Assembly: GCA_031268175.1 (NCBI GenBank)
Contig: JAIRXR010000011.1
Span: 149,229 to 213,228 of the forward strand
From: Puniceicoccales bacterium
GTDB lineage: Bacteria; Verrucomicrobiota; Verrucomicrobiia; Opitutales; JAIRKQ01
Direction of reading: 5' to 3'
DNA length: 64,000 nt
The notes under the pieces are model-generated. The model searched no databases. It worked only from the letters and a program-made list of their open reading frames with translations, and had not been told where the DNA came from. Below, piece by piece: positions 11,169-56,609 of the stretch; positions within the stretch are counted from its first letter, which is position 1, and every line of letters begins with the position of its first letter. A program made the translations under genes and the position numbers.

Positions 11169-13106
11169 CTACTCAACGACGAGCATGTCGTTGTTCCGAA
11201 TGCTCTTGCTGTACCGCTGCAGAAATACCTTCATAAATTCCTCGAGCTGTTCCATGCATACCCTGCGAGATTCGCTATTGGCCAAGTTGTTTTTCAAAAG
11301 GAAATCCGATCTCTCGTAAAATCCAACGACTTTCATCCCGTCAAACCTTAGTACAAAATCCTTCACTATCAACTGGTAGATGCCATCGACGTAACTCACT
11401 GCAAACCGAGGGGCGTCCACATCGAACAAACTTGAGCCGAACGAAAAGTAGTCGTGCGAAATTCCTATGAGATCCAAAATTGATGGCATAAGGTCTATTT
11501 GCTGTGCGACTTCATCGGATTTTCCGACCAGCTTCCCGCTCGGATCGAAGAACATCAGAGGAATCGAATAGCCTCCCAGTGTGTTTTTGTAGTACCCTTG
11601 CTGCGGACAGGATATGTGGTCTGCGACCAACACGAATATGGTATTTTTATACCAGTCCATTTTTTCGGCGGTTTCGAAAAATCTCCGCAGCGAATAGTCA
11701 GTGTACGCGATCAGCTCCTGCATCGGTTCCTTCCCACTACCTTTCGGAAATTTGCCGTGCAATCTTTTGGGATATAGAAATGGATGGTGCGACGACAGCG
11801 TGAACAAGACCGAGAAAAATGGTTTTTTGGCCTCATTAACTTTCTTCGCCACGAATTGGAAAAATTCTTCGTCGTAAACGCCCCAGCCGCTAATGTCCAA
11901 AGGAGAGCCATCGTAGTCGCATTCGCAATAGTATTCCTCGATTTGGGCCTTGGTGCGCAGGCTATCAAAGTTGCACGAATTTCTTTTTCCTCCGTAAAAA
12001 AACATGGTCTTGTACCCATCTCTTTGCAGGAGCAAAGGCAAAGATACGATTGCATTCTCGCCGTAAGCGCTGGTTATGTAGGACGAATTGAACAGTCTCG
12101 GAACGCCCAACATGACGGAAGTTAACCCATCTATGGACGTTGCCCCATTGGCAAAGCCGTCAAAAACGTAACTCCTTTCGATCAGCGAATCTAAAAATGG
12201 AGTAAAATGCCCATCTGGGAGCTCCTTAAACTGCCTATCGAGGGCGCCCACGTGCTCCGCCGAAAAACTTTCCAAGATTATTATGAATACGTTTTTTCCC
12301 TTGAAATGCTCACTCAAGGCGCATGGTTTCGCACTTGCGTGTCTCGGAGAAAATTTCACCAATCGGATATCATCCGCTGCAAAGTATCCGCGACGTGGCA
12401 TGTTTGCCTTTTTTCTCGTGTGGAAAACGTCAAACGCCGTGTTTTTCACAAGGCACACAGTGCCGCTGGTCGGCGCATAGATGTTTACATCAACGGGCTT
12501 TAGCGGTTTGCCCTGCAACCCACCGCGAATGCCAATTACCAAAGCAACCATAGACACTAAAAAGTACGCAAAATCACGCCTTCCAATGTTTGCAAATTTT
12601 CCCGTTTGCCTAAATTTAAGCATGCACATGGCGAGCGCACAGATCAAAAATACGCCCACCAACGCAACGTACCAGTAGCGCGTAAGCATGTTAATGTACA
12701 CCGACGAATCTTCAATCAGCATGGCCGCTTGGGCAAATATTTCGCCGCCCATGCGCTTGAACGTGAACGAAAACAACTTGGCGTCAACGACGTTTACCAG
12801 GATGATTAAGAAATTGACAGCAAAAAACCACGTCTGCGCCAGTGCATTAAAAAATTTCCACGACCGTAATTTGGAAGGCAAAGACCAAAATACCCAGATC
12901 GGCGCGTTGAAAATCGCAATCGTTGACGCATCAAACCTCAGGCCGACGAGAAATGCCAGCGCGACGCTGGCAGAGGTTTCGCCTGACAAAAATTCACGAT
13001 TGCACAGGAAAAACAGCAAACGTGCGGCCGAAAAAATAGCCATTAGCGCGGCGAATTTGCACAGCAAAATCACCCAATAATTTTTCTCTTGTCTTTGTTC
13101 CAACAT
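11169..13106 (-). CDS. LTA synthase / phosphoglycerol transferase family membrane sulfatase (alkaline phosphatase superfamily)
   Basis: Five N-terminal TM helices followed by a sulfatase-type domain (VFIIILESFSAEHVG). Length is 645 aa. Confidence 0.75.
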   Translation of the reverse strand: MLEQRQEKNYWVILLCKFAALMAIFSAARLLFFLCNREFLSGETSASVALAFLVGLRFDASTIAIFNAPIWVFWSLPSKLRSWKFFNALAQTWFFAVNFLIILVNVVDAKLFSFTFKRMGGEIFAQAAMLIEDSSVYINMLTRYWYVALVGVFLICALAMCMLKFRQTGKFANIGRRDFAYFLVSMVALVIGIRGGLQGKPLKPVDVNIYAPTSGTVCLVKNTAFDVFHTRKKANMPRRGYFAADDIRLVKFSPRHASAKPCALSEHFKGKNVFIIILESFSAEHVGALDRQFKELPDGHFTPFLDSLIERSYVFDGFANGATSIDGLTSVMLGVPRLFNSSYITSAYGENAIVSLPLLLQRDGYKTMFFYGGKRNSCNFDSLRTKAQIEEYYCECDYDGSPLDISGWGVYDEEFFQFVAKKVNEAKKPFFSVLFTLSSHHPFLYPKRLHGKFPKGSGKEPMQELIAYTDYSLRRFFETAEKMDWYKNTIFVLVADHISCPQQGYYKNTLGGYSIPLMFFDPSGKLVGKSDEVAQQIDLMPSILDLIGISHDYFSFGSSLFDVDAPRFAVSYVDGIYQLIVKDFVLRFDGMKVVGFYERSDFLLKNNLANSESRRVCMEQLEEFMKVFLQRYSKSIRNNDMLVVE

Positions 13107-16273: not shown

Positions 16274-18859
16274 ATGAAGGATTTTCACAGGCAAATTCTA
16301 CTGCTTGCACTAATTTTTGGTGGCGCGCAGTGTTTCGCCGGTCCCGATGAGGCGCAAAATTTCGCCATCGATGGTGATCTTGTTGCCGTCGAAAATTTGG
16401 CAAGCGGAAAATTTGCGTCCCTGTTAAACAGCGGCAATGGGGCGTATAAAGTTGGATTCTTTTCCCTGGCGAAAAAATTTTTCACCGATGCACTGGCCAT
16501 AAAACCGCTGTCCAATGAGCAAAGGTGCATGGCCTTTTCCGGGCTAATCGAATCATGCCTTGCAACCGGAGATTTTTCCGAGATGGCGAACAAATTTGAC
16601 GCAATTTCGAAGTTGGCAAATGCCGAGGTGCACCCGAAGGCACACGGCCGATTTTTGGTGGACGCAGCCATTGCCGCGTGCCTAAAGAACGATTTCTCGA
16701 TGGCGAACAGGATTTTGTTAAAATCGGACATAAAAAGCTTCGGCGATTTCGAGCTCGCCTGGTACTATGCCGCCAGGAGCGCCATTTTCGCCGCGGCCAT
16801 GAACTTTGAAGAAATGGGGCACAATTTGGAAGAGGCTGAAAAGCACTCCACCTCAACTGATCAAATCGCTCAAATTCAAGCATTTGCCGTCCAATTCATG
16901 CTGCAAACACCGGCGAAATCCAGTGAATTCAGCGGCGTACTGAGCGCGCTCAATGCCCTGTGTAAAAAATACGGATGGCAAAAAAATGGATACCCATTTG
17001 TGCGAGCCTACGCGCTTCTGCTAATCCGTTCCGGAAACGGCAAGGGGGCAAAGGCCGTGCTTGCAGAACACGCGGCGCACGTGGGCGATTCCGATGTGCA
17101 GAATTTGCAATCATTCCGCCTGTGTGAGGCAATTGCCGGTGGTATCCACTCTCCCGATGGCTACGCCATAGTAGGCAATCTACTGCTGTCAGAGGCCAGC
17201 GACGAACTGAAGCAGCAGGCTCTGAAATTATTGACTATGGCGGCGGAAAACAAAAATCAGCGGCTGGAAGCCATAGGCATGCTGTCAGACCAAAGATTTC
17301 AAAAATTGCCGCAGCGCATTAGCCGGCAGATAATGCTGACCAAGATGAGCCTCGCCGTCGACGCTGGCGACATGGCTACGGCGCAGAAGGCATGCGAAGA
17401 GTTCACATCCCAGTTTCCCGGGGATACTTTGGTGAAAAATGCATGGGAAGCCATCGCATACCTGGCGTGGCAGCGAGACCCGAAGGACTACCGCATGGCG
17501 GCGCATTACTTCGGCAAAGTGCGTGACCTTGCGCAGAGCGAGGAGGAAAAAATCCCGACCACCATACAAATGGGCAACGCTTTTTACCTCAGCGAGGCCT
17601 ATGATATCGCTGCCCAGGCCTATGAAGAGGTCCTCAAAACACATTTGAAACTGGACGGCGTGCAACTTGACAGATTGCTGTGCCTACTTATCCAAGCTGA
17701 CATCAAATCGGAAAATTTGGCCGCCGCGGAACGGCATCTGCAAGCTTTCAAAAAAAATCACAACCTACTCACGGAATACCGATGGCACGCCGAATTATCC
17801 TACATAAATGCGCTAATTCACGCAGGTGAAGCCGACAAAGCCACTGACTATCTGTCGCTGCTGTTGGATTCGTACTCGCCCAGCATTCAGCCATTCTATC
17901 TTGTAAAATTCTATTTGCTACAGGCGCATTCGATGTTTTCAAATGGAAAATACCAGCAAGCGCACATCATGGCCTCGCGCATTTGCGAACACTTCCCCCA
18001 CAGGAGCAATTCAGCCGAAATCGCCGAAATCGTCGCCAGGGCGCTGTTCATCAAGGGGACCTGCGAATTGAAGCTTAGGAATGAACGCGATGGCCTGCAA
18101 ACCTTCGCGCTGCTCAGAAAAACCTATGCAAAATTGGATCCGGCGATGCTGTCACACTTCGAAGAGGCGGAATATTTTTATCGCGGCGGTGATGTTTCGG
18201 GAGCATGCCAAACTCTACTTGAATGCGCGAAGGCCGAATGCAAATATTCGCCATTCGCCTACTACAAGTGCGCCGAGTATTACAAATCCCTCGGACTGCA
18301 GAGCTACGGCGATGCGATGGCGTGCCTGTCGGACTTGATCGCGAAATATGGCGACCACGAAATTGCCTATGCAGCGCGGTTGGACATCGCGGATTTACTG
18401 CGCATGAGCGGCAGATTCGGTGACGCGGAGCTGGTATACGAGGAGCTGCTGAAGGATTTTCCGTTCGACCAGAGATACCACTTCACGGAATTTTGCCTCG
18501 CAAAAACGATCTTCGCCCAGAAGGCACGCGGAGAAATTTTCGCCGAACGGGCCCAGGTAGCGCTCGAGCGGCTGTATGCAACGGCCACATTCGACAGATC
18601 GCTGCACATGGAAATTGCCGCGACCTACTGCTTTGTCCTGGATGAAAATTCCAAAGTCGAAGAAATGAAAAGGATCGCCTGGGAAACCTTGCTGGCGACG
18701 GTTTCCAGCGAAAGGGAACTGAGCCACAACGACATCTACTGGCTGTTGCAAATTGCAAATTTGCTCGCCCAATACGAAGCCTGGGCAACCGGCGACGAGA
18801 CCGTTGCTCTGCGCAAAATCGTGGAAAAGCTATGCGCAATCTCCGGAAAGGCGAATTAG
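16274..18859 (+). CDS. large secreted TPR-like repeat protein (hypothetical)
   Basis: 861 aa with an N-terminal signal peptide (ILLLALIFGGAQCFA) and a helical repeat-rich composition. No catalytic motif seen. Confidence 0.6.
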   Translation: MKDFHRQILLLALIFGGAQCFAGPDEAQNFAIDGDLVAVENLASGKFASLLNSGNGAYKVGFFSLAKKFFTDALAIKPLSNEQRCMAFSGLIESCLATGDFSEMANKFDAISKLANAEVHPKAHGRFLVDAAIAACLKNDFSMANRILLKSDIKSFGDFELAWYYAARSAIFAAAMNFEEMGHNLEEAEKHSTSTDQIAQIQAFAVQFMLQTPAKSSEFSGVLSALNALCKKYGWQKNGYPFVRAYALLLIRSGNGKGAKAVLAEHAAHVGDSDVQNLQSFRLCEAIAGGIHSPDGYAIVGNLLLSEASDELKQQALKLLTMAAENKNQRLEAIGMLSDQRFQKLPQRISRQIMLTKMSLAVDAGDMATAQKACEEFTSQFPGDTLVKNAWEAIAYLAWQRDPKDYRMAAHYFGKVRDLAQSEEEKIPTTIQMGNAFYLSEAYDIAAQAYEEVLKTHLKLDGVQLDRLLCLLIQADIKSENLAAAERHLQAFKKNHNLLTEYRWHAELSYINALIHAGEADKATDYLSLLLDSYSPSIQPFYLVKFYLLQAHSMFSNGKYQQAHIMASRICEHFPHRSNSAEIAEIVARALFIKGTCELKLRNERDGLQTFALLRKTYAKLDPAMLSHFEEAEYFYRGGDVSGACQTLLECAKAECKYSPFAYYKCAEYYKSLGLQSYGDAMACLSDLIAKYGDHEIAYAARLDIADLLRMSGRFGDAELVYEELLKDFPFDQRYHFTEFCLAKTIFAQKARGEIFAERAQVALERLYATATFDRSLHMEIAATYCFVLDENSKVEEMKRIAWETLLATVSSERELSHNDIYWLLQIANLLAQYEAWATGDETVALRKIVEKLCAISGKAN

Positions 18860-18875
18860 CGTGAAAATATTTTCC

Positions 18876-19787
18876 ATGGCCATTTGCATCCTTTCAATTT
18901 CCTGCGCGAACGCCAGTGGCGGCGACATTTTTACGGCCGGCGAGGCCGTCGCGCTGGGTATCACCCAGGGAGCGACGGAATTTCTGCCAATTTCGTCCAC
19001 GGGACATTTGATACTGGTGGATAAGTTTTTACTTAACCATCGGCTGGAAGAATTCGGCGATGGAGAAGATGTGGCGGCGTCCGCACTGAGGGCGCGGGGC
19101 AAAAGTTCCTATTTCTGCATAATTCAGTGCGGGTCAATTTTGGCAGTATTGCTTCTGTACAGGAACCGCTTCCTCCAAATGGCCCTCAGCGTGCTCGGTA
19201 AAGATTGCCGCGGGCGCAAGCTAGCAATCAATTTGATCGTTTCGTTTTTGCCAGCCGCACTGGTTGGCCTCGCCGCCGACGGATGGATCCAGAAAAAGCT
19301 GTACGGCGAAATTGCCATTTCAATGGCACTGCTGATCGGTAGCGCGATCATGCTCCTCGCAGAGATGGCACACAATAAAAAATCCGAAGCGAACTTTGTT
19401 TCCATCGAGGATCTGACCGCACGGAAGAGCTTCGCCATAGGCTGCTGGCAATGCCTGGCCCTCATCCCTGGGATGAGCAGATCCATGGCGACAATCGTCG
19501 GTGGCTACGGATGCGGACTGCGCAGATCCGACGCCGTGGAATACAGTTTCCTACTGGGCGCATTGACGCTGGCTGCAACGGTTATGTACAAGTGCGCCAG
19601 AGACTTCGACGCAATATTCCTCTGCCTGGGCGCTGGAACATTTTTCATGGGAATTGCAATAGCCTTCGCCGTATCGGCCGCCACAATCAAAATTTTCACC
19701 GCATTCGTCGCGCGCCACGGCACCTACGTTTTTGCCGCATATAGAATAGTTTTAGCGATCGCAATTCTGTGCAATGCGCTGGCATAA
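18876..19787 (+). CDS. uppP: undecaprenyl-diphosphatase
   Basis: LGITQGATEFLPISSTGHL matches the BacA/UppP signature. It is a multi-TM protein. The ATG at 18876 follows the upstream gene stop at 18859. Confidence 0.85.
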   Translation: MAICILSISCANASGGDIFTAGEAVALGITQGATEFLPISSTGHLILVDKFLLNHRLEEFGDGEDVAASALRARGKSSYFCIIQCGSILAVLLLYRNRFLQMALSVLGKDCRGRKLAINLIVSFLPAALVGLAADGWIQKKLYGEIAISMALLIGSAIMLLAEMAHNKKSEANFVSIEDLTARKSFAIGCWQCLALIPGMSRSMATIVGGYGCGLRRSDAVEYSFLLGALTLAATVMYKCARDFDAIFLCLGAGTFFMGIAIAFAVSAATIKIFTAFVARHGTYVFAAYRIVLAIAILCNALA

Positions 19788-30144: not shown

Positions 30145-30462
30145 TGGCAAAAACTAGTTTTCATTGCCAAGAACCGACCATCGCACTGCATGCGTCGCAT
30201 GGTCGCCAGTGTAACAACAAATTTATCTAACAATTGGAAACGCAAATAGCGCTGTGAGCACATGTCGTGGCGAACCGGTACGTGTTTCCAATTTTACATG
30301 CTAAACGGCGTTGCATATTGCAAAAATCTTAGCTTCGCAGTTGTTCCAAGCAAAAGAAATACCGTTGAGCTTTTATCGTATATAAAAAACAAAACTTATT
30401 TTTTATTGACAATTTAATTTTGACGATGTTTGTCGTTTTACACAGCCAAAGAAAGATTAGTT

Positions 30463-31179
30463 ATGTCAAATGATATTAGAACACTAAGTAACGATATGTC
30501 AAACGCCGTTAACAAAATGATTAACAGCATCCAAGGTAGATTGCACAAAATCGATAGTTTAGGAAAGGAATTTTCTGCTGAAAAAAAGGGAAATGGTCTT
30601 TCTCCGTCTGTATCTAAAACACGTGAAACACCCGCAACAGCGCGAACGTCCGTTTCCAATTCCAATGTACCTTTAAACAAGGGCATTCCACCGAGGCCAA
30701 ACAACAATCCCTCTACGGTTCAAGTCGTAAGACAAGAACCCACAAATTTACCAGCGGCGCGGCGATTGTTGATCGATGAGGAAATAGATAAAAGACTCAT
30801 TGAGTGTAAAAAAGCTTTCGATGAGAATAATGGAAACGGAAATACTGTAATCGAGACTGACACAAAGATCGCCAGTATTGCCTATAATGCGTACTTTGAT
30901 TTACTTACAGAATATACGAAAGATGGAGATGTAATTTATGTCGCAGATGTCGGTATTTTTTATGAAAAAGCTAGAATACTTGGACTTGTGTTCAGCTGCT
31001 ACGCAAACCACTCTATGAAAAACTGTATGAATGCCGTTCTTAGCACTGTAACAACTGGTAAAAAAATTTCACGCGAAATATCGAAATTCTTTAATGTCCC
31101 ACAGAAAGAAGCTGAAAAACAATTAGAAGAGATTTGGCTCGACGAACTGGATGCCTTACTAGACCGCTTAGAAGACTAA
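30463..31179 (+). CDS. hypothetical protein carried on the low-GC insertion, with an S/N/T-rich disordered N-terminal region
   Basis: ATG at 30463 (MSNDIRTLSNDMSNAV...). The track ORF begins at a TTG at 30430. The gene is strongly AT-rich relative to the flanks, has no signal peptide or TM, and shows no recognisable domain. Confidence 0.5.
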   Translation: MSNDIRTLSNDMSNAVNKMINSIQGRLHKIDSLGKEFSAEKKGNGLSPSVSKTRETPATARTSVSNSNVPLNKGIPPRPNNNPSTVQVVRQEPTNLPAARRLLIDEEIDKRLIECKKAFDENNGNGNTVIETDTKIASIAYNAYFDLLTEYTKDGDVIYVADVGIFYEKARILGLVFSCYANHSMKNCMNAVLSTVTTGKKISREISKFFNVPQKEAEKQLEEIWLDELDALLDRLED

Positions 31180-31192
31180 TGAGTTATCATGG

Positions 31193-31393
31193 CTAGTTTT
31201 TACCGTGCCAATGGTAAATGTTTTCCATGAGATTTATCACTAGCAAAAATATCACAATAACGGCAGCGGCGACGATGGCAAAGGACAAAGTTATAGCTGG
31301 TTCGACCATCGTCGTCAAAAATACTAGGCGATACCTAATTTTTTCATCGCAGATTTCGCCTATTTTCGCAATCCGCGGGGCGCGAAATTCCAC
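31193..31393 (-). CDS. small hydrophobic hypothetical protein on the insertion
   Basis: 66-aa ORF with one TM helix (LSFAIVAAAVIVIFLLVINL). Its start lies inside repeat copy B. It could be spurious. Confidence 0.25.
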   Translation of the reverse strand: MEFRAPRIAKIGEICDEKIRYRLVFLTTMVEPAITLSFAIVAAAVIVIFLLVINLMENIYHWHGKN

Positions 31394-31479
31394 AGTGCGC
31401 TGTTCGATTCCCTTGCAACTTCACTGCTGCCCCAAAATTTACGGAAATATTTCACTAATGTTTCTCTGGAAATGCTGCT
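31375..31479 (+). repeat. direct repeat copy B (diverged duplicate of the exonuclease 3' end)
   Basis: In the exonuclease frame it encodes ...KFHSALFDSLATSLLPQNLRKYFTNVSLEMLLFI*, an intact-looking C-terminal remnant ending at the TAG at 31486-31488. Confidence 0.7.
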
Positions 31480-31544
31480 ATTCATTTAGGGCAAACAGAA
31501 TTCAAAATTAGTCTTTTGTTGACAAAAACGATTTTCTTCGCAGC

Positions 31545-34070: not shown

Positions 34071-35426
34071 CTATGGTGATTTGCGCAACTCATTCAACTC
34101 CTTTCGCAACTCTTCCAGCAGAGTCATCCGCTCGGCGATCTGCTTTTCCGCACCCGAGTCATTCGGAACCCAGAATTTTTCCGGGTGTTCCATGTAGTAC
34201 TGCCCCGATACGTTGCTGTCAAAATTATGGCTGTAGAGATAATCCTTCTGATTGCCAGCGCGCTCATTTGCCTTGCCGTGGCTATCGCGCAGCCACAGAG
34301 GGACGTTCTGTGATCCATTTTTTACCACCGAAGCGCGGCACCGGGAAAGCGCCATGTAGGTTGAGTTGCTCTTGGGAGTCGCCGCCAAAAATACGGTAAC
34401 GTGGGCCAAATTTATCGCGCACTCCGGCATTCCAATTTTTTCGCAGGCCTCGAAGCAGGCAATTGCCAGAGGGAGAGCCATTGGATCGGCAAGCGCAACG
34501 TCTTCGGATGCGAAAATTACCATTCGCCGAGCGATAAACCGCGGATCTTCTCCGCCGTCCAACATTTTGTTGAGCCAGAAAATCGCAGCGTCCGGGTCGC
34601 ACCCGCGCATGCTCTTTATGTACGCTGAAATGGTGTCGTAGTGCTCGTCTTCATCCGCATCGTATCTGAGAGCTCGCTCGATGGAAAAGTTTTCCACGGC
34701 ATCGGCAGTGATCTCAGATCCCATGGGAAGGCTCGCCACAATCGTCTCGAGGGCATTCAGCGCCCAGCGCAGGTCCCCGTTGGCCATGGTTGCGATGCTC
34801 GCAATCACCTCCCTTTTGCAGTGGCATTTCGCGGAACCGAGCCCGCGTTCGCAGTCACCAAGCGCCAGCCCCAAAATGGCGGCGATCGCATCGACACTAA
34901 TTGGATTCAACCTGAAGAGGTGGCTCCTGCTCAGCAGCGGCGAAATAACGTAGAACCCGGGGTTGTGCGTCGTCGCGCCTATCAGGCGAATGCTAGCATT
35001 TTCCACATCCGGCAGCAGCAGGTCCTGCTGCGCCTTGTTAAATCGATGAATTTCGTCGATGAACAGCAGAACATTGCGCTCGATGTGCTTCCTGGCGAAT
35101 GCTAAAATTTCACGCAACTCGGCAACGTTCGACAGCACGGCGTTGATTTTTACAAATTTCGACTTCGTCTCACCGGCAATAACTTCCGCGAGTGTAGTTT
35201 TACCGCACCCGGGAACGCCGTAGAAGATTATGCTGGAAAATGTTCCAGATTTTACCAACTTTGGAAGCAGGCATTTGGGGCCGAGGATGTGCCCCTGCCC
35301 CACGATTTCGTCCAGCGTTTTTGGACGCATCTTTATCGCCAGAGGGACGTAGCGCGGCGTGGCGCTCGAATCACTGTCACTCGCCACCCAATCGAACGTA
35401 AATTCGTCCTGTTCGTGCGAGTCCAT
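34071..35426 (-). CDS. rarA: replication-associated recombination protein A (AAA+ ATPase)
   Basis: Walker A GVPGCGKTTLA, sensor and arginine finger, and a MgsA-type C-terminal domain. Length is 451 aa. Confidence 0.85.
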   Translation of the reverse strand: MDSHEQDEFTFDWVASDSDSSATPRYVPLAIKMRPKTLDEIVGQGHILGPKCLLPKLVKSGTFSSIIFYGVPGCGKTTLAEVIAGETKSKFVKINAVLSNVAELREILAFARKHIERNVLLFIDEIHRFNKAQQDLLLPDVENASIRLIGATTHNPGFYVISPLLSRSHLFRLNPISVDAIAAILGLALGDCERGLGSAKCHCKREVIASIATMANGDLRWALNALETIVASLPMGSEITADAVENFSIERALRYDADEDEHYDTISAYIKSMRGCDPDAAIFWLNKMLDGGEDPRFIARRMVIFASEDVALADPMALPLAIACFEACEKIGMPECAINLAHVTVFLAATPKSNSTYMALSRCRASVVKNGSQNVPLWLRDSHGKANERAGNQKDYLYSHNFDSNVSGQYYMEHPEKFWVPNDSGAEKQIAERMTLLEELRKELNELRKSP

Positions 35427-36242
35427 TTAGCATTCCGTTCTGCGCTGCCTAATCCTTCGGCGCTTTGGGGCGAACCCACGCTTCGTTTCGATCAAAAAGA
35501 AATTTAGAAAATTTTTCGTTTCCTCCGTCGATGCGAAGCCTTCACCCATCATGCGCTTCGCACGGTCAGCAAAATTACCAACTCTAGCATAGAACTCGCG
35601 AAAGCAATTTTTCAGGGCCACAATACTCTCGCTGGAAATTTTCGCGCGGCGGAGGCCGACGAGGTTGAGACCGATCACCGTCGAAACTTCGAATGCCATG
35701 GCATAGGGTGGTATATTGAGAGCTGTGGCGCTTGCTCCGCCGAGTATGACGCAATCTCCGATCGTGACCCACTGGTGCACGGCGGATCCGCCGCCGATGA
35801 AGCATTTTTTCCCAACCACCGCATGGCCACCCAACATGGAGCCACTAGCTAAAATTGACCCATCGCCAACGGTGCAATCGTGGGCAACGTGTGAACCGGA
35901 TTGCAGCATGCAGCCGCTTCCGATCTTCGTTGATGAGGACTCCTCCGAGGCCCTGTGTACCGTGACATGTTCGCGGATGCACGCATTGTCACCGATCGTA
36001 ACGCCGCTTCTAATTTTTTCATCGAAACTTTCATCCTGCGGAAGGCCCCCGATCGCCGCAAAACTATCGACTAGGCAGTTGCTCCCAATGGTCGTTCCAG
36101 TTTTTACCTCGGCGTGACTTCCAATTGTCGTGCCATCGCCGATTGTAACGCCATCGCCAATTACAGCATAGGGACCGATTGTAACGCCACTGCCGAAGGA
36201 AACACCCCCGCCCACTATCGCACTGCCATGGATGCGCGCCAT
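35427..36242 (-). CDS. lpxA: acyl-ACP--UDP-N-acetylglucosamine O-acyltransferase
   Basis: Hexapeptide left-handed beta-helix repeats throughout, plus an LpxA-type C-terminal helical domain. About 271 aa. Confidence 0.8.
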   Translation of the reverse strand: MARIHGSAIVGGGVSFGSGVTIGPYAVIGDGVTIGDGTTIGSHAEVKTGTTIGSNCLVDSFAAIGGLPQDESFDEKIRSGVTIGDNACIREHVTVHRASEESSSTKIGSGCMLQSGSHVAHDCTVGDGSILASGSMLGGHAVVGKKCFIGGGSAVHQWVTIGDCVILGGASATALNIPPYAMAFEVSTVIGLNLVGLRRAKISSESIVALKNCFREFYARVGNFADRAKRMMGEGFASTEETKNFLNFFLIETKRGFAPKRRRIRQRRTEC

Positions 36243-36281
36243 GGCGCGACATGCTCTTCAAAATGCCACCCAAGTCAAGGA

Positions 36282-38153
36282 TTACAGGCTAAGATATCGC
36301 GAAATCCTTTCCGCAATGCTCCTAAATACTACCAGCGAAATTGCAGAGCCCGGCGTCATCGCATCCTCCACTTCTGCGCCATCTATCACCACTGTGATGG
36401 CAATTTTCGGTGCGTTGACCGGGAAAAATCCACTGTGGGATGAAATGTATGCGCCATCGGAACCAATTTTTTTGCTTAGACCAGCCTTGCCAGCAAATTC
36501 GATTCCATTTTTTAGTTGGTCAGCGTCCGGATTGTGGAGAACACTTCGCATGCGCGCCGCTGTCTGCCGCGATATCACGCGCCGCCTTATTACTGGCCCA
36601 ACGGTCAAAATCTCGGCATCTTCATCGCTAACGCATTTGAACAGGTTTGGTTTTAGCAAAAGTCCGTCGTTGGCAATCGTCGCCATGGCACAGTGTACCT
36701 GCAGGGGGACGACGCCGATGGCACGCCCCGTTGCCACGTGTATCACCGCAAGCAAATCCCAGTCGGCCACTGGATGCACTATGCCCTTGGACTCACCGTC
36801 GAACCCATAGCCGGCTTTCTCGCCGAAGCCATAGGCGCACACGCAGTCGTAGAAATTTTGTTCCCCAATTTTGAGCGCCACTTGCGCCACCGCTCTGCTA
36901 TTGGATTTTCTAACTGCCTCGGTGAATGTCAGCTTGCCGTGGTATCCCTGATCCTTCGGCATGGGAATGACTTTGCCGCGGTTCGTGTTCGTTGCCTGCG
37001 TGCAATCGAATACCGTTTCCTCGTCCACCAGACCCCTTTCCAACCCAAATGACATGGCAACTATCCCAAAAATCGATGCTGGCTCGTAGATACTGCAAAC
37101 GGCCAAATTTTTCATCGACTCCTGAGGGAAGCGCCAGAATTCGTTTGGATCGTAGTCCGGGTAGTTTGCCAGCGCCAAAATTTCACCGGTTGTAACTTCG
37201 CTGACGATGATCGAAACTGACTTCGGGGAAAAATTTTCCACCAACGCATCAATTTCATCGCTGACGATCTTCTGGATATTTTTATCTATGGTCAGCACGA
37301 CACTGCAACCATCCCTACTTTGAAATTCTTTCTTCCTGTAGTGAACTAGCTCGCGGGCACTGCCGTCTCTTTCCGATTCGATGTATCCGTCCTGTCCCCC
37401 CAGGTAAAAGTTCATATACCTTTCGACGCCGCAGGAAGCCACGCCGGCCCTGTTCACAAAGCCAGTTACATGGGCCATCATGCGGCCGAATGGGTATAGG
37501 CGGCGGCGCGCTTGTACGCCGTACACACCGCGAATTTTCATGGCCTTTATCGCCGCATGCAGCGACTCGCTCTCCATTTCGCAAATTGGGACCCAGTGGA
37601 TTTTTTTAACCTTTCCTCTCACTATTTTTTTCCTCTTGGTAAATTTTTCCAGTACGTCCCTTGCATCAATGCCAAGAATTTCTCCGAGCGTGCAAATTTT
37701 TGCCAAATCCTTTTCCGCGTCCGCGGCGTACGGGTCAACGCCTAGGACGACTATCGCTTCGTTGGATGCCAGCACTTCGAAATTTCTGTCGAATATGGTA
37801 CCCCGCCTCGCTGCCGTCGTCGTGATTGACCGTCTGGTGCGTTCCATTGACTGGTAATATTTATCGCGGCTGATGTGGGACAGATCCACCAGTCTCCACA
37901 CTATTACACCAAATAGTGAAAAAACAATGGCGACCACAGCCCAGTGGCGCGCATACTTTTCTTTGGCATTCAAATTGAAAAACGTTGTGGCGAAAAAGCC
38001 ACCCCCCTCAAGGATAATGTTTTCCCAGAAATTCACCAAAATTGCCATGTTTTTGCGCACGATTTCCGGCAAATTGTAAAATTCACACAACTGTGCCATT
38101 GGCCGGCAAAGATATTTGCGGCGAATTTCGCGCGAATCGATGGCGGGCGACAC
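36282..38153 (-). CDS. penicillin-binding protein, FtsI/PBP2-like transpeptidase homolog with non-canonical active-site motifs
   Basis: An N-terminal TM anchor and a dimerisation domain. The transpeptidase domain aligns with FtsI (YEPASIFGIVAMSFGLERGLV aligns with FEPGSTVKPMVVMTALQRGVV). The SxxK lysine is replaced (SIFG), the SxN region reads KSNS, and KTG reads KAG. Confidence 0.75.
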   Translation of the reverse strand: MSPAIDSREIRRKYLCRPMAQLCEFYNLPEIVRKNMAILVNFWENIILEGGGFFATTFFNLNAKEKYARHWAVVAIVFSLFGVIVWRLVDLSHISRDKYYQSMERTRRSITTTAARRGTIFDRNFEVLASNEAIVVLGVDPYAADAEKDLAKICTLGEILGIDARDVLEKFTKRKKIVRGKVKKIHWVPICEMESESLHAAIKAMKIRGVYGVQARRRLYPFGRMMAHVTGFVNRAGVASCGVERYMNFYLGGQDGYIESERDGSARELVHYRKKEFQSRDGCSVVLTIDKNIQKIVSDEIDALVENFSPKSVSIIVSEVTTGEILALANYPDYDPNEFWRFPQESMKNLAVCSIYEPASIFGIVAMSFGLERGLVDEETVFDCTQATNTNRGKVIPMPKDQGYHGKLTFTEAVRKSNSRAVAQVALKIGEQNFYDCVCAYGFGEKAGYGFDGESKGIVHPVADWDLLAVIHVATGRAIGVVPLQVHCAMATIANDGLLLKPNLFKCVSDEDAEILTVGPVIRRRVISRQTAARMRSVLHNPDADQLKNGIEFAGKAGLSKKIGSDGAYISSHSGFFPVNAPKIAITVVIDGAEVEDAMTPGSAISLVVFRSIAERISRYLSL

Positions 38154-38223
38154 CCCGGAGAAATAATTTTCACACCAGTTTTATATTGCAAAATTACCAT
38201 CGGCGACATACCTCTATTGGCAA

Positions 38224-38835
38224 ATGAGTTGGGCTTATTGCACAGTCGTTCTTCTAGCGTCCTATGTTGTTGGATCCCTACCGTCCGGTGTCATTGTGGC
38301 GCGAATGCACGGGGTGAACATCCTTTCGTGCGGCAGTGGATCTTCCGGAGCCACGAACGTAAAGCGGTCGGTCGGAAGCCGCGCCGGATACGCTGTTTTT
38401 TTATTGGACTTTTTCAAGGGATTGGTTCCGAGCTTGCTTGGACTGAAAATGGCGTTCCACGGAAATATTCCCGGCATGCGAATGGCAATGCTCGCGCTGG
38501 TTGGCGTGCTGCTCGGACACAATTTTTCACTCTTTTGCAAATTCCACGGTGGTAAAGGGATCGCATCGACCATGGGCGGAATTTTCATAATCATGCCGAA
38601 GACTTTGGTAATAGGCGTGCTTGTCTGGTTGGTTCTTTTTCATGCTACGCGCATTGTGTCAGTGGCATCGCTGTGCTTCGCGGCCAGCATTCCACTCACC
38701 GCCTACCTGTTCGCCTATCCCCGCGAATGCATTATTTTCGCACTTGTTTTGAATCTAATCATTTTTTGGAGTCACGGAGAAAACATCGCGCGACTCGCCA
38801 GCGGAACGGAACATAGATTTTCTATAAAAAACTGA
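38224..38835 (+). CDS. plsY: glycerol-3-phosphate acyltransferase
   Basis: GSLPSGVIVAR...GSGSSGATNV matches the PlsY signature (GSGNxGATN). A multi-TM protein of 203 aa. Confidence 0.85.
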   Translation: MSWAYCTVVLLASYVVGSLPSGVIVARMHGVNILSCGSGSSGATNVKRSVGSRAGYAVFLLDFFKGLVPSLLGLKMAFHGNIPGMRMAMLALVGVLLGHNFSLFCKFHGGKGIASTMGGIFIIMPKTLVIGVLVWLVLFHATRIVSVASLCFAASIPLTAYLFAYPRECIIFALVLNLIIFWSHGENIARLASGTEHRFSIKN

Positions 38836-38905
38836 GGGCCATCCAAAAATACGCTAGGGCAACCGCGAACGCGACCGGCGCTAGCAAGCAGGTAAAAGGA
38901 AAGAA

Positions 38906-49472: not shown

Positions 49473-50882
49473 GTGGCATTGGATGCGCGCTTAACAATTC
49501 AAAAATTCAAAGGGCTTGCGGAGCGCCGCGTGTTCGATGTTGTTCTGTGGATCTGCAATGAGCTCATCGGCGCCGGAGCTAGGCCATACCTCGTCGGCGG
49601 ATGTGTGCGTGACGCGATTCTTGGAGCGGCGTTGACCGATTTCGACGTGGAGGTTTTTTCCATGCCATTCGGCGAAGTTGAAAAAATTTTGTCGAAAAAA
49701 TTTACCATCGAAAAGACCGGCAAGGCATTCTGCGTGCTTAAGTTACGCGAATTCCCCATCGACGTCTCCGTGCCGCGCTTGGAGGTAAAGTCCGGAAGCG
49801 GGCACAGGGATTTTTCCGTCGACCAACTCGGCGAATGCAACGTAAAAATCGCCGCCGAACGGCGCGATTTTACAATAAACGCCACGTACTTCGACGTCAA
49901 AGGCGAAAAAATCATCGATGCATTTGATGGCATCGGGGACATGGCATCGCGCACGCTGCGACACGTTGGCGAAAAATTCTCCGAAGATCCGCTGCGCGTG
50001 CTGCGCGGCATGCAACTTGCCGGAAGGTTTAATCTGGTGGCGGACAGGGAAACCATCGCACTATGCCGAGGGCTTTCCATTCGTTCCATCTCAAGTGAAC
50101 GCATCTTCTTCGAATGGAAAAAACTAATACTCCAGGCGGAAACGCCATCGCTCGGTTTAAAGTTTTTGGAGGACTCCGGCTGGCTGAAATTTTTCCCAGA
50201 GATTGGAGCACTCGCGCAGTGCATGCAGGATAGTGATGCTCACCCCGAAGGGTCCGTCTTCGTGCATACCTGCATGGCGCTTGACGCGTTCGCTAAGGCG
50301 AGGATTGGGGATGAACTGGAGGATCTTATTCTCGGATTCGCCACGCTGTGCCACGACTTCGGCAAGCCCTATGTGACGACGCACGACAGCCGCGGCATTC
50401 ACCACTATGACCACGACAAAGCCGGCGTGGAACCGGCGACGCAATTCCTACAATCGATCAACGCTCCAAAGTACCTTATTGAAGCCGTTTCTCCGCTGAT
50501 TTTGTGGCACATGGTGCCCAGATTCCTCTACGGGAAAAGTCGCTCCGATGGTGATGTGCTGCGTCTGGCGAACCGCGTTGGTCGCATAGACCGCCTGCTG
50601 CGCCTGTGCTTCGCCGACTTCGCGGGCCGTGCGAATTGGCGGGAAAGGTATGATCCAGGCATGGAGGAGTGGCTTGGGAGTACGGCCCGTAGACTCGGCG
50701 TATTTTCAAGCAAACCGGCCCCACTAATCCAGGGTCGCCACCTGGTCGAATTTGGGGTGGCACCGTCGGAAAAATTTTCCAGAATACTGGACGAGTGTTT
50801 CGAGGCCCAGTTGAATTGCGAATTTGTTGATCTTTCGAGTGGGCTGGCATACTTGCAAAAAGCCATGCGGTGCTACGATTGA
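49473..50882 (+). CDS. cca: CCA tRNA nucleotidyltransferase (class II, with HD domain)
   Basis: LVGGCVRD and RRDFTINA nucleotidyltransferase motifs, and an HD motif (LCHDFGK) in the C-terminal half. Confidence 0.8.
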   Translation: MALDARLTIQKFKGLAERRVFDVVLWICNELIGAGARPYLVGGCVRDAILGAALTDFDVEVFSMPFGEVEKILSKKFTIEKTGKAFCVLKLREFPIDVSVPRLEVKSGSGHRDFSVDQLGECNVKIAAERRDFTINATYFDVKGEKIIDAFDGIGDMASRTLRHVGEKFSEDPLRVLRGMQLAGRFNLVADRETIALCRGLSIRSISSERIFFEWKKLILQAETPSLGLKFLEDSGWLKFFPEIGALAQCMQDSDAHPEGSVFVHTCMALDAFAKARIGDELEDLILGFATLCHDFGKPYVTTHDSRGIHHYDHDKAGVEPATQFLQSINAPKYLIEAVSPLILWHMVPRFLYGKSRSDGDVLRLANRVGRIDRLLRLCFADFAGRANWRERYDPGMEEWLGSTARRLGVFSSKPAPLIQGRHLVEFGVAPSEKFSRILDECFEAQLNCEFVDLSSGLAYLQKAMRCYD

Positions 50883-50884
50883 CG

Positions 50885-51739
50885 ATGAAAGCAAGGAAAA
50901 GATTTGCGGAAAATTGCATCCCGGTAAAATTCGGAAAGCGCAGCACAATCGCTACATTCGTCCCACTGCTTGCCGTTGGACTGCTGCTTCTCTCCATGCC
51001 GACCTCTTCAAAAAATTGCATCGCCGAAGCGTTTAAGCATGCCCAAGCCCCCGTCTACGCAGCGACAATACAGTGGGAAAGGCTGGTGAACACGCTCAGG
51101 ACCAGTGCCATTCCAAGGGCAAAACTGGTGGCGTTTTGCGAAGATCTTCTCAGGGAAAACGAACTGCTCAGATTGCAATTGGCAGCTGCCGATGAAAAAC
51201 GCAGTGCAAATGCCGCCGCGGAGGCGCGCAAAATCGGCAATTTTACCGTGATACCGGCGAAGGTAATCCGCCGTGACATCGCCACTTGGGCCAGTGAATT
51301 GCTGATCAACAGCGGATCGGCCGATGGAATTCGCGCTGGCATGGGCGTAATTTCGCAAAATCGCGTGGTAGGCCGCGTAAAATCAGTGAACTCCAAAACG
51401 GCCACCGTCGAATTGCTCACATCTCCACAGTTCAGAATGGTCGTCCACGCAGCCGTGGATTCGGAAATGTCGCCCATAATCTTCACAGGCGGCAGTGGGA
51501 ATATCTTTGGAAAATCGAATGGCACGGTGACCAACGTCCCGCCAAATTTTTCGCGAAACGGCGAAAAAATAGCGCTCGTCACATCGGAACTTTCAGGAAT
51601 TTTTCCAAAAAACATCGCCGTTGGTGTGATAGACTACCCGGGACATAGCGAAGGAAATTGTTCCATTGGCGTGATCTTGAACGGCGAAGCGCTATCGAAG
51701 ATACGCGAAGTTGCGGTTCTAGCAAACGACGGAGACTAA
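50885..51739 (+). CDS. mreC: rod shape-determining protein MreC
   Basis: An N-terminal TM, a coiled coil (ENELLRLQLAAAD), then beta-rich repeats (VIPAKVI..., GEKIALVTSELSGIFPKNIAVGVI). The ATG at 50885 follows the cca stop (track ORF from 50870). Confidence 0.7.
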   Translation: MKARKRFAENCIPVKFGKRSTIATFVPLLAVGLLLLSMPTSSKNCIAEAFKHAQAPVYAATIQWERLVNTLRTSAIPRAKLVAFCEDLLRENELLRLQLAAADEKRSANAAAEARKIGNFTVIPAKVIRRDIATWASELLINSGSADGIRAGMGVISQNRVVGRVKSVNSKTATVELLTSPQFRMVVHAAVDSEMSPIIFTGGSGNIFGKSNGTVTNVPPNFSRNGEKIALVTSELSGIFPKNIAVGVIDYPGHSEGNCSIGVILNGEALSKIREVAVLANDGD

Positions 51740-51741
51740 CC

Positions 51742-52260
51742 ATGTCAGCTTTTTTCTTCGCCACTCTGCACTACTCCACGCTAATTTTCTGCCAATTTTT
51801 CAACAACGCGACCCAATACCCGAGCGCATTGATCGTTCCGGTTGGGCTACTCATCCACGACCACGGAGATTATTTGGGACCAATCGGCGGGACAATTCTG
51901 TGCCTAGCGATTGGGTTGCTGCTCGATGCAACATTCTGGTTTTTGCCATTTGGATTCAGCGTAATTTTTTGCCTCTTCTTTCACTGTGCGCGAAAGCTAC
52001 TGGCAAACGCCGCAGCCGACAAAGCGATCCGCCATCGCATTGCCTGCGAGCAGCTCGCAAATATTTTGTACGTATTTTTTCTATTTGCCCTCGGAAGTGG
52101 ACCTTTTCCCGTGAGCAAATTTTTGGCAACGGCGGCACTGTCACAGGCAGCTGTGTTTTTTAGTTCGGGCCCAATGGCGCGGGCGCACGTAAAAATTGCG
52201 TCATTCTGCGACGGCTACGCAAAGTATGGCCGTCGGACAATCAAAAATTCGTTCCGTTGA
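51742..52260 (+). CDS. mreD: rod shape-determining protein MreD
   Basis: A 172-aa polytopic membrane protein starting 3 nt after the mreC stop, which is the canonical mreC-mreD order. The assignment rests on position and size. Confidence 0.5.
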   Translation: MSAFFFATLHYSTLIFCQFFNNATQYPSALIVPVGLLIHDHGDYLGPIGGTILCLAIGLLLDATFWFLPFGFSVIFCLFFHCARKLLANAAADKAIRHRIACEQLANILYVFFLFALGSGPFPVSKFLATAALSQAAVFFSSGPMARAHVKIASFCDGYAKYGRRTIKNSFR

Positions 52261-53053
52261 AGCTGATTCTTCCGAAGCTCTTCCTGGAATTTGCAAAGAG
52301 GAAATCCTTCGCTTTCGCCCGGTCCTTCGACGCCACGGCGTCGAATTTTTGAGCATCTCTCCCCTGGAAAGCGCGTAGTGTGACATCCAGAAATATCAAT
52401 TCTCCTGGTACTGTTAGTGATTTTCCAGATTTTTGATATGCCAACGCGCCGCCGAAGAAAATCATCCGTTCGTTCGAGGCGGTCATGAAAATTTTTCCAT
52501 TACGCTTCTTCACGGCGGCGCGAATTTTGAAATCGGAGAGTACAGTGTCGAATTTGCGAACCTGTTTGCAGGATTGGTCAGCGCCGTCGAAAAACTTTTT
52601 AAATGACGATCCATTGGCCAGCGCACCCTGCAGCGACAGCGTGGTGGTCGCATCGAGCAAAATCCTCGAAACTTCAACTTTTCCAGCTCCCAATTGGAGA
52701 ACGTCGTAGCACAGAGCCCTCGTCACGCTGGGCTCGCCGTTGTCGGCGACCGTCGCGAAGCAGAATATGGCGATGCCTTTGCCGTCGTCTCTTGCGCAAA
52801 TTTCAAAAATTGGCTGATTCTTGTCCAGCATGACAACCGACTCGAAATCGGTCCTCATGCCCTTTAACAGCGCGTGCAATGCGCAGTCGACGCCCCTAGC
52901 CTCTTCCATCGATTTCGCATTTTCAGCGGAAACATTGACGAGCTTTCCCCCTAGAAACACCACAACTACCACGATGCTCAGCGCTAGAATCACCTCGAAT
53001 AGCGAAAAAGCTCTACCTTTTCCAACTCCCAAACTACAAAATCCCTTTGACAT
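52241..53053 (-). CDS. prepilin-type N-terminal cleavage/methylation domain protein (pseudopilin-like)
   Basis: The N-terminal GKGRAFSLFEVILALSIVVVVVFL matches the class III signal (F-S-L-x-E with Glu+5) plus a hydrophobic helix. The remainder is a beta-rich periplasmic domain. Confidence 0.55.
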   Translation of the reverse strand: MSKGFCSLGVGKGRAFSLFEVILALSIVVVVVFLGGKLVNVSAENAKSMEEARGVDCALHALLKGMRTDFESVVMLDKNQPIFEICARDDGKGIAIFCFATVADNGEPSVTRALCYDVLQLGAGKVEVSRILLDATTTLSLQGALANGSSFKKFFDGADQSCKQVRKFDTVLSDFKIRAAVKKRNGKIFMTASNERMIFFGGALAYQKSGKSLTVPGELIFLDVTLRAFQGRDAQKFDAVASKDRAKAKDFLFANSRKSFGRISFNGTNF

Positions 53054-55061: not shown

Positions 55062-56609
55062 TTAGTCAATCGTTTTTTTTCGCGCCGAGAAAGCGCGACG
55101 GATGAGTCTGCGGCACAGGAATAAATACGCCGGTGGTGCCAGAGCCCCCGCCAGGGCAACGGAGACCACGTCGCCAACTTTTTTACCGCATGGCAAGTAT
55201 GATTTCACGAAAAATCTTGCGCCAGCAGCAAGGAGTGCCACGGCGGCGCAGCCGTATAATATGGGAGCGCAGCCCTTGAATTTTTCCGCAAAGGACGCCC
55301 CATTCACCTTCCTTCTGAACAGTACAGCCAGGCAAATCGCCTGCAAGACTGCGGCGCAACCCATCGCCATGGCCAACCCAACGACGCCAAATGGGCCGAC
55401 GAATGTGAGCGCAAGCGTGGCGTTAGTAGCCAGTGCCGCGAAGCCGACAAAGGCCGGCGTTTTCATATCCTTCAACGCGTGAAATCCGCGAATCAGGAGC
55501 GTCGAAGCACCGGCAAATACCATGCTGCAGCAGTAGGCCGCGACGATTGGGACAACGCTTGCGACGTTTCCCGAAGAAAAATTACCGCGTTCAAAGAATA
55601 CTGAGAGGATTTCCCGCCTCAGCATAAATAGCCCGATGGCGGACGGCAGCAAAATCCACAGCAGGGCCACGAGGCATGAATCGAACGCTGCGCCCATCGT
55701 CTCCTTCGATTTTGCGCTGGCGATTTTTGCCATGTCTGGGAAGAAAACCGTTCCAATGGCCAGCGCGAAAATGCCTGTCGGCAATTCCACAAGGCGAACT
55801 GCGACGTAGAGCAACGTCACAGCCGGGGCAAAAAATCGGTAGGCGATGAATCGAGACACCAGCACGTTGAGCTGCTCAATGGACGCACCGAATGTCCCTG
55901 GGAGAAATAATCTCCAAACGTCGGCCAGTCCTTCCTTCAGATTTTCCGTTTCACCAAGCGAAGGGCGCCAGCCGAGTGCGAACATGGCGGCAAGGGGCAT
56001 CGCCAGTTGGACAAATCCACCGACCAGCACACCGACTACCAGGCAGTGCACCAATGGCAATCCCTCAAGTCGAAAGCAAAGGCCCCCAATCAGCAGGGAT
56101 AAAATCATCGAAATGTTCATCCAAACCTGATTGATGGATGATACGAAAAATTTACCGAGAACATTCAGCGCCGCCGAAACAATGGCAGCCAAGCACACGA
56201 AAATCATGTATGGCAACAGCGCGGCTGCAAACGATAGCGCCATTGACCACTTGGCATCTGCAACCGCACCATCGGCAACGGCGACGGCGACGTAGGTTAG
56301 TGCCAAAATGCAGCACAGCATAATGGCCAATCGCCAAATCACGTGGCTGAATAGTTTGAACATCGAATTTTTTCCGTACCTAACGTACTGCGCCGATAGG
56401 ACTGGAATCACGGCCGATGCTAGAGTCCCTTCGCCCAGCAGCCTGCGTAAAAGGTTTGGAAAACTAAACGCCAGCAGGAATGCCGCACCGATCTCGGATA
56501 TGCCGAAAAAGGAAACGAATGTCGCGTCGCGCAAATACCCAAACACACGGGAGACAACTGTCATGCTCGACACAATCGACACGTTTTTCAGTGTGCTACT
56601 TTTTTCCAT
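55062..56609 (-). CDS. murJ: lipid II flippase
   Basis: The N-terminal SRVFGYLRDATFVSFFGIS...DAF...FPNLLRRLLGEG matches the MurJ/MviN consensus. Fourteen TM helices, 515 aa. Confidence 0.85.
   Translation of the reverse strand: MEKSSTLKNVSIVSSMTVVSRVFGYLRDATFVSFFGISEIGAAFLLAFSFPNLLRRLLGEGTLASAVIPVLSAQYVRYGKNSMFKLFSHVIWRLAIMLCCILALTYVAVAVADGAVADAKWSMALSFAAALLPYMIFVCLAAIVSAALNVLGKFFVSSINQVWMNISMILSLLIGGLCFRLEGLPLVHCLVVGVLVGGFVQLAMPLAAMFALGWRPSLGETENLKEGLADVWRLFLPGTFGASIEQLNVLVSRFIAYRFFAPAVTLLYVAVRLVELPTGIFALAIGTVFFPDMAKIASAKSKETMGAAFDSCLVALLWILLPSAIGLFMLRREILSVFFERGNFSSGNVASVVPIVAAYCCSMVFAGASTLLIRGFHALKDMKTPAFVGFAALATNATLALTFVGPFGVVGLAMAMGCAAVLQAICLAVLFRRKVNGASFAEKFKGCAPILYGCAAVALLAAGARFFVKSYLPCGKKVGDVVSVALAGALAPPAYLFLCRRLIRRAFSARKKTID

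Follow-up and report, generated by a model that had tools for sequence, protein, structure and literature searches.

An FtsI-type penicillin-binding protein with degenerate transpeptidase motifs and a conserved pedestal in a Puniceicoccales bacterium

How should a division-type class B penicillin-binding protein (PBP) be understood when the residues expected to carry out its chemistry are no longer in place? This question arises for a gene at positions 36282-38153 on the minus strand of a 64,000-nucleotide stretch from a Puniceicoccales bacterium (GenBank assembly GCA_031268175.1, contig JAIRXR010000011.1), referred to as the window in the following. The gene encodes a homolog of FtsI, in which all three active-site motifs of the transpeptidase (TP) domain are altered. 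To our knowledge, the question of chemistry versus a role in the assembly and activation of SEDS polymerases has been tackled for division-specific class B PBPs largely by engineering the catalytic serine in a small number of Firmicutes model organisms.

The FtsI homolog is encoded by one intact open reading frame (ORF) comprising 623 codons from a GTG start. At NCBI, the product of the same ORF is deposited as "penicillin-binding protein 2" (MDR1433450.1, 271-kb contig) with 605 aa, beginning at an ATG at residue 19. The start is thus ambiguous between the GTG at 38153, resulting in 623 aa (IMG), and the ATG at 38099, resulting in 605 aa (NCBI). Under either start the cytoplasmic N-terminus would comprise approximately 50-68 aa, which exceeds that of most relatives and is a low-confidence part of the structure prediction, with a predicted local distance difference test (pLDDT) of 44-75. 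A promoter and terminator scan of positions 35300-38900 showed nothing exceeding shuffled expectation.

The domain architecture was determined with Pfam, NCBIfam, phmmer, AlphaFold2 and Foldseek. Pfam detected PBP_dimer (PF03717) at aa 113-236 with 53.5 bits (cutoff 24.4) and Transpeptidase (PF00905) at aa 314-605 with 149.8 bits (cutoff 22.1). The pedestal is preceded by a hydrophobic helix at aa 70-91 (HWAVVAIVFSLFGVIVWRLVDL; 37881-37946, minus strand like all features of the gene given below), which aligns with the transmembrane segment of the relatives, corresponds to an AlphaFold2 helix at aa 65-94 and represents the putative N-terminal membrane anchor. The pedestal itself (aa 95-305; 37239-37871) includes the segments ARRGTIFDRN, RRRLYPFG, HVTGFV and GVERYMNFYLGGQDG. 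In the alignment its motifs RGxIxDR, RxYP, GF and GxE...G are all retained, and the residues R117, G118, D122, R218, Y220, P221, G231, G242, E244, G253 and G256 are all present. The TP-fold domain spans aa 314-605 (36339-37214). The AlphaFold2 model, calculated from an 84-sequence alignment, showed a complete PBP3-like fold with a mean pLDDT of 91.7 and a predicted template modelling score (pTM) of 0.83; within the folded part the pLDDT dips only at aa 561-570 (to 76) and at aa 591-600. The best PDB matches in Foldseek were structures of Pseudomonas aeruginosa PBP3 (E=4e-43, target-normalised TM-score 0.84). The NCBIfam scores all remained below the equivalog cutoffs, with 315 of 688 bits for SpoVD, 212 of 455 for MrdA and 165 of 737 for FtsI, while PenA was also matched. 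The top PDB sequence matches in phmmer were SpoVD and FtsI, and MrdA matched far more weakly. Altogether, the product is a complete class B PBP consisting of membrane anchor, pedestal and TP domain.

In penicilloyl-serine transferases the lysine of the SxxK motif activates the serine nucleophile, the asparagine of SxN and the threonine of KTG position the substrate and the oxyanion or carboxylate, and strand beta3 together with the loop behind it lines the donor site. As far as we know, the SxxK lysine acts as general base in all characterised members of the group. In the FtsI homolog, the phmmer alignments to solved structures aligned S360-I-F-G363 (37065-37076) with S-T-F-K in SpoVD of Clostridioides difficile (7rcz) and with the S-T-V-K site in FtsI of P. 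aeruginosa. In the same register, S417-N-S419 (36897-36905) lies on S-C-N or S-S-N, the latter being the motif of the relatives, and K556-A-G558 (36480-36488) on K-T-G or K-S-G. An identical motif register was obtained by a MAFFT alignment with 120 homologs. The first-pass annotation, made from the sequence without database searches, had claimed that all three motifs are altered, and the multiple alignment together with the alignments to solved structures confirms the altered residues at SxxK, SxN and KTG in register. It had also named a Ser-x-x-Lys elsewhere in register as the observation that would speak against this claim. Scanning of the whole protein with regular expressions revealed a single S..K, located at aa 95 just past the transmembrane helix and outside the TP domain, and neither S.N nor K[TS]G at any position. 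An alternative motif register was therefore ruled out.

In motif 1 the nucleophile Ser360 is kept, while the general-base lysine is replaced by glycine at position 363; Ser417, Lys556 and Gly558 are retained as well. A comparison with the three nearest sequenced relatives at the codon level showed differences of as many as three nucleotides per codon, namely the changes AAA to GGG (K363G), AGC to AAT (S418N), AAC to AGC (N419S), ACT to GCT (T557A) and ACC to CTA (T559L). Since the codon changes in the motifs are multi-nucleotide changes, base-calling noise and sequencing error can be excluded as their origin. Further changes comprise, besides T559L, which affects the threonine of KTGT, G560S, Q561K, Y564G, Y573H, P608V and V329A. 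Straight after motif 3, the end of beta3 and the beta3-beta4 loop (aa 559-573; 36435-36479) are remodelled, as seen in the alignment, the conserved columns and the dip in pLDDT. A net deletion of four residues is found in this active-site loop, which is the sole indel of the TP domain: the relatives show GKTGTGQKI-IDGKYSHSRHTSSYSGFFP, the window protein GKAGLSKKIGSDGAY-----ISSHSGFFP. The protein accordingly lacks all three sequence signatures of active DD-transpeptidases, i.e. SxxK, SxN and K(T/S)G. Because the SxxK lysine, the SxN asparagine, the KTG threonine and residues of beta3 and its loop are lost together, acylation by D-Ala-D-Ala stem peptides and by beta-lactams is predicted to be abolished.

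Such a combination was not observed in any other homolog. In the 120-homolog alignment all three motif signatures were kept in 119 of the 119 other sequences, three of which contain SxD for SxN. A second set comprised the best 150 HMMER matches from an exhaustive search of 1.84 billion cluster representatives, and of these 143 were intact, four were truncated proteins and three differed in one motif only. These one-motif variants (P0275, P0168 and P0149) are FtsI-like proteins of other lineages that are full-length apart from this and contain SSS or SST for SxN or KTS(T) for KTG. Neither a loss of the SxxK lysine nor more than one altered motif occurred in another case among the approximately 260 homologs. 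The motif loss is hence not due to chance and, among these homologs, is restricted to a single lineage. Scans of public metagenome and genome collections recovered neither the degenerate allele nor a relative closer than ~67%, the matches being relatives with an identity of at most 60%, and a limited search of the open-access literature yielded engineered mutants and architecture surveys, but no description of a naturally motif-dead ortholog of FtsI or another class B PBP.

The nearest relatives (P0002-P0015) show 47-67% identity, originate from Puniceicoccales metagenome-assembled genomes (MAGs) where named, and are catalytically intact. Two of them are Kf353_bin47 and Ncb351_bin52, whose sample codes (PMC11707648) refer to Kalotermes flavicollis and Neotermes cubanus, both of them lower termites. 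The MDR accession series to which the window protein belongs points to a study of the same type as the possible origin of the window MAG. On four contigs of relatives (L001, L017, L018, L002) an intact PBP gene is oriented divergently from plsY and followed by lpxA. The same order is found in the window, with plsY at 38224-38835 (plus strand) divergent upstream and lpxA at 35427-36242 (minus strand) directly downstream, both serving as synteny anchors. rarA comes next after lpxA in L001, L017 and L018, and iPGM is present too in L001 and L017. Since the arrangement of plsY and the divergent PBP-lpxA-rarA-iPGM genes is common to the window and the sister MAGs, the window gene can be regarded as a positional ortholog. 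Among the homologs examined from outside the clade, the nearest one (P0019, Opitutae, 38% identity) is located in a canonical dcw cluster with the order mraZ-rsmH-(138-aa ftsL-sized ORF)-PBP-murE-murF-mraY...ftsW-murG-murB. The PBP genes of the window and of the examined sister MAGs lie between plsY and lpxA and not in the ftsL-murE slot, which suggests that the FtsI-type gene of this clade has moved away from the dcw cluster. In an Opitutae relative (L004, 10001-11803) the canonical order mraZ-rsmH-ftsL-ftsI-murE was found, and genes for a YkuD L,D-transpeptidase and a LysM protein also belong to this cluster.

The window gene is the ortholog of the intact sister genes and, as judged from sequence and gene order, most likely of the FtsI type, i.e. 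PBP3-like and division-specific. The term paralog used in the first-pass annotation is consequently not supported. No second FtsI-like copy was seen in the 64 kb of the genome covered by the window. A dcw-located FtsI paralog was sought among the matches of 33-39% identity, and the named members of this group were other Opitutae (marine Opitutae, Lacunisphaera).

The divergence of the window protein is unevenly distributed. In the pedestal (here aa 70-305), its identity to the closest clade members of 56-70% is comparable to that among those members. In the TP domain, it shows 60-66% identity to them, while the members typically share 66-74% with each other and up to 86% in the closest pairs. 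Tajima relative-rate tests were performed with L017 and L001 as sisters and L018 as outgroup. For the TP domain, 54 changes unique to the window were counted against 22 for L017 (p=2.4e-4) and 54 against 26 for L001 (p=1.7e-3). For the pedestal, the counts of 13 against 19 and 17 against 22 were not significant, and LpxA, RarA and PlsY were symmetric throughout. A separate count of lineage-unique changes yielded 48 in the TP domain versus 10 in the pedestal. Among the columns conserved to at least 90%, 9 of the 47 in the TP domain are broken in the window protein and none of the 22 in the pedestal; the respective numbers for the relatives are 0-5 and 0-3. The three-taxon branch lengths in nonsynonymous divergence (dN) point in the same direction: for the TP domain, the window branch measures ~0.17 and the sister branch ~0.08, while for the pedestal both amount to ~0.10. 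A generally fast evolution of the genome as the cause was ruled out, since LpxA, RarA, PlsY and MurJ are rate-symmetric. The acceleration is thus confined to the catalytic domain and neither gene-wide nor genome-wide.

The synonymous sites between window and relatives are at or beyond saturation, with an identity at fourfold sites of 0.34-0.43 and a synonymous divergence (dS) according to NG86 of at least 1.8 or undefined. Pairwise dN/dS values were unusable for this reason, and dN branch lengths together with fourfold-site identity were used instead. As the dN of the TP domain amounts to only ~0.17 while its synonymous sites are saturated, the domain would have been under purifying selection, averaged over the branch. 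Among the 48 window-unique changes in the TP domain, 21 (44%), K363G and T559L among them, require more than one nucleotide step (two or three). Such changes indicate that catalysis was not lost just recently. The intact frame of 623 codons likewise speaks against simple decay, since the frame stayed open in only 6-21% of neutral simulation runs, even with indels left aside. These findings suggest that the constraint on the TP domain is partly relaxed, with ongoing selection on the whole protein.

We lean towards the view that the protein is a natural pseudo-transpeptidase, which may be kept to partner and activate FtsW, while cross-links would be made in trans. We infer all three parts of this reading, namely the loss of activity, the retained role as scaffold or activator and the substitute cross-linker. 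According to the proposal, the lineage of the window would have lost the TP active site with the lysine of SxxK, the asparagine of SxN and the threonine of KTG, accompanied by the remodelling of the beta3-beta4 loop. The protein would still be produced. Its membrane anchor and pedestal, which remain under normal constraint, would associate with FtsW and activate this SEDS polymerase of the septum, the TP domain would be kept as a folded, inert module, and the cross-links could be supplied by a class A PBP, an L,D-transpeptidase or a PBP2 of the elongasome. A scaffold function had already been proposed in the first-pass annotation, with an unusual cross-linking arrangement as the alternative. 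Apart from the wording as a paralog, this idea fits the intact pedestal, which evolves at the rate of the sisters, and the acceleration of the TP domain alone. In the sense that catalytic residues are lost while the predicted fold and the ORF are retained, the protein would qualify as a pseudoenzyme.

The proposed role has counterparts in known systems. In characterised systems, the membrane anchor and the pedestal of class B PBPs interact with FtsW, the cognate SEDS glycosyltransferase, activate it allosterically and receive the input of FtsQLB. LytM-domain factors like EnvC and NlpD illustrate the same concept, being degenerate peptidoglycan-enzyme folds that activate partner enzymes; they differ by another fold, by amidases as partners and by constituting widespread families, as opposed to a loss in a single lineage here. 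The polymerase activity of FtsW was shown to require the cognate class B PBP (bioRxiv 10.1101/358663). PBP2B(S309A) of Bacillus subtilis supports division provided that PBP3 is present (PMC5656894), and SpoVD(S311A) of C. difficile supports asymmetric division in dependence on SpoVE and PBP3 (PMC12713402). Both are division PBPs devoid of catalysis, and the formation of septa with them has been explained by a structural contribution or by activation of the SEDS partner, with another PBP compensating. Compared to these engineered mutants, the loss in the window is natural, the serine is spared, lysine, asparagine and threonine are gone, and the whole TP domain is further diverged. The window protein would accordingly differ from the known dead class B PBPs in being natural, serine-sparing and broadly diverged in its TP domain. 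As far as the parts consulted of a survey from 2025 go, the plasticity of class B PBPs is discussed there and no naturally motif-dead FtsI is described (PMC12516126). With FtsI/PBP3 as represented by P. aeruginosa PBP3 (PDB 3oc2, 7onk and the FtsWIQBL complex 8bh1), the window protein shares the architecture at the TM-score given above and a sequence match of E ~1e-47, but differs in the alteration of all motifs, the shorter beta3-beta4 loop and the plsY-lpxA location instead of dcw. The intact sister orthologs (P0002-P0015) show an equally conserved pedestal and, where examined, the plsY/lpxA neighbourhood; unlike the window protein they contain S[VT]FK, SSN and K[TS]GT, Q and Y after KTGT and a beta3-beta4 loop of full length.

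Several observations weigh against this reading. The evidence originates from one uncultured MAG, only this one assembly carries the degenerate allele, and reductive decay is a live alternative. Neither ftsW nor any substitute transpeptidase was found within the 64-kb window. Of the window-unique changes in the TP domain, 10 of 52 fall into columns conserved to at least 80%, which make up 27% of all columns, and this distribution is not significantly non-neutral. It is mainly the low dN and the open frame that hint at a remaining constraint on the TP fold, and the high AlphaFold2 confidence is driven by the alignment of active homologs. Concerning the precedents, PBP2B(S309A) and SpoVD(S311A) are engineered, originate from Firmicutes and affect the serine only, and the dead SpoVD of C. 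difficile was found to be dominant-negative for cortex synthesis (PMC12713402).

The same data could be explained by an incipient pseudogene, in which case the division transpeptidase would be dispensable in a host-associated, gene-losing lineage and the gene would be drifting towards loss. We consider this rather doubtful, yet it has to be taken seriously. The 2.1-2.5 fold acceleration of the TP domain, the in-frame deletion in the beta3-beta4 loop and the unique substitutions, whose frequency in conserved columns does not differ significantly from a random distribution, would be expected of a decaying gene. In neutral simulations, which ignored frameshifts and indels, 21% of the sequences remained free of stops after 30 extra amino-acid changes and 6% after 54, so that an open frame without selection is not negligible. 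The relatives from lower-termite guts also fit, as verrucomicrobial endosymbionts of protists with genomes of ~1 Mb are known from there. Furthermore, a neighbouring gene was lost in the window. In L017, L001, L018, L009 and L002, a gene for an aspartate kinase of approximately 400 aa (NF005154, E=1.6e-98 for L017) adjoins plsY, while in the window it is cleanly gone and the spacer between plsY and a HIT-family gene comprises 70 bp (38836-38905). Aspartate kinase feeds the pathways to diaminopimelate (DAP) and lysine, threonine and methionine. Its loss hints at a more advanced dependence on the host or community, and DAP or lysine for peptidoglycan could possibly be imported.

On the other hand, a functionless gene should decay throughout, whereas here the acceleration ends at the domain boundary and the pedestal, with 13-17 changes versus 19-22 in the sisters and none of its 22 conserved columns broken, remains constrained. 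The low dN of the TP branch despite saturated synonymous sites also speaks against decay. In addition, the active-site changes of two to three nucleotides imply an old loss, yet neither a stop nor a frameshift has accumulated, and the neighbouring genes and MurJ show no sign of a genome-wide acceleration.

A further explanation would be that the protein is still an enzyme or has been neofunctionalised, either with a non-canonical base, as a hydrolase, or as a non-covalent stem-peptide-binding or regulatory domain. Ser360, Ser417, Lys556 and Gly558 are kept, Q561K puts a new lysine on beta3 beside the active site, and the clustering of changes around the motifs might result from directional selection instead of a relaxed constraint. 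Catalytic residues can migrate, as noted in a review on pseudoenzymes (PMC10211241). However, three independent catalytic elements are changed together, and the loss of the SxxK lysine is tolerated by none of the homologs compared, which makes this explanation improbable. A mis-assembly, a chimeric binning or a sequencing error, for which it could be argued that the sequence exists on a single metagenome-assembled contig, deposited in NCBI and IMG, with nothing closer than ~67% in public collections, is highly improbable given that dozens of substitutions, many of them multi-nucleotide, and an in-frame indel are distributed over 900 bp with the frame preserved, and given an unbroken synteny with the relatives through both flanks, and an even GC content across the locus on a contig of 271 kb.

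Returning to the proposed pseudo-transpeptidase, the surrounding genes provide information on the cell wall of the organism. The first-pass annotation had described the peptidoglycan machinery of the window as intact, naming murJ, mreCD and uppP, which holds for MurJ, MreC and UppP. MurJ (55062-56609, minus strand) matched TIGR01695 with 284.7 bits, above the equivalog cutoff, and was not accelerated in any of the 14 relative-rate tests performed with members of the clade. MreC (50870-51739, plus strand), UppP/BacA (within 18753-19787, plus strand) and GlmS are present as well. MreD is only a guess, since the ORF concerned (51658-52260) showed no family match. This 200-aa ORF follows mreC as a possible mreD and is itself followed by an unannotated minus-strand ORF (52241-53053), and not by the usual mrdA-rodA. 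Judging from MurJ, UppP and MreC, peptidoglycan synthesis appears to be still under selection in the lineage of the window. Among the window ORFs scanned, neither mrdA/rodA nor a gene for a class A PBP or a YkuD protein was detected. In a search for FtsW seeded with the protein of an Opitutaceae member, the 120 matches listed were of the Opitutaceae type, all with at least 74% identity to this query and none from the termite clade. A MurJ from a Logan assembly (P0292, 5.7-kb contig) is 76% identical to the MurJ of the window, while the best PBP relative reaches at most 67%. This MurJ shows that public reads contain a much closer relative; the FtsI of its genome was not contained in the searched collections.

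Some other genes and regions of the window were also assigned. The ORF at 3291-4028, a member of the Asp/Glu-racemase family, was considered as glutamate racemase MurI and rejected, because models of cysteate and aspartate racemases fit far better, with 157.5 bits for cysteate racemase (cutoff 190), 117.8 bits for the aspartate-racemase subfamily (cutoff 93.1) and ~20 bits for glutamate racemase. A membrane protein of the sulfatase family with 645 aa is encoded at 11169-13106 (minus strand), and its matches to LtaS and phosphoglycerol transferases are weak (99 bits, far below the cutoff), so that it is regarded as an envelope-modifying enzyme in a general sense. The genes lpxA, lpxB and lptF/G are found near this gene, in line with a bacterium producing lipopolysaccharide. 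A region of ~1.4 kb at 30145-31544 has a low GC content (~0.42 vs ~0.51) and contains two ORFs (30430-31179 and 31218-31511), neither of which gave a Pfam match; for 30430-31179 there was no NCBIfam match either. In L001 and L017 the flanks of this region, a 177-aa ORF and a Band7 gene, abut each other, so that the insertion looks like a lineage-specific acquisition.

What follows for the biology of the organism depends on which explanation applies. In the case of a decaying gene, the window would represent an ordinary snapshot of reductive evolution. If instead the catalytic centre was dropped while the pedestal as well as MurJ, UppP and MreC were kept, this would be natural evidence that the roles of class B PBPs are separable, and K363G, N419S, T557A, T559L and the beta3-beta4 deletion form a small set of changes that can be tested and reverted. 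It would also show a simplification of the cell-wall machinery in a probably host-associated gut bacterium. Tentatively, and as a possibility we rate below the pseudo-transpeptidase reading itself, the degenerate protein could even be the only division-specific class B PBP of the organism, whose divisome would then run on a naturally TP-dead FtsI with non-cognate or little septal cross-linking. In that case FtsW would be activated by a pseudoenzyme, FtsI would be intrinsically blind to beta-lactams, and the organism would provide the natural counterpart of the PBP2B(S309A) and SpoVD(S311A) experiments.

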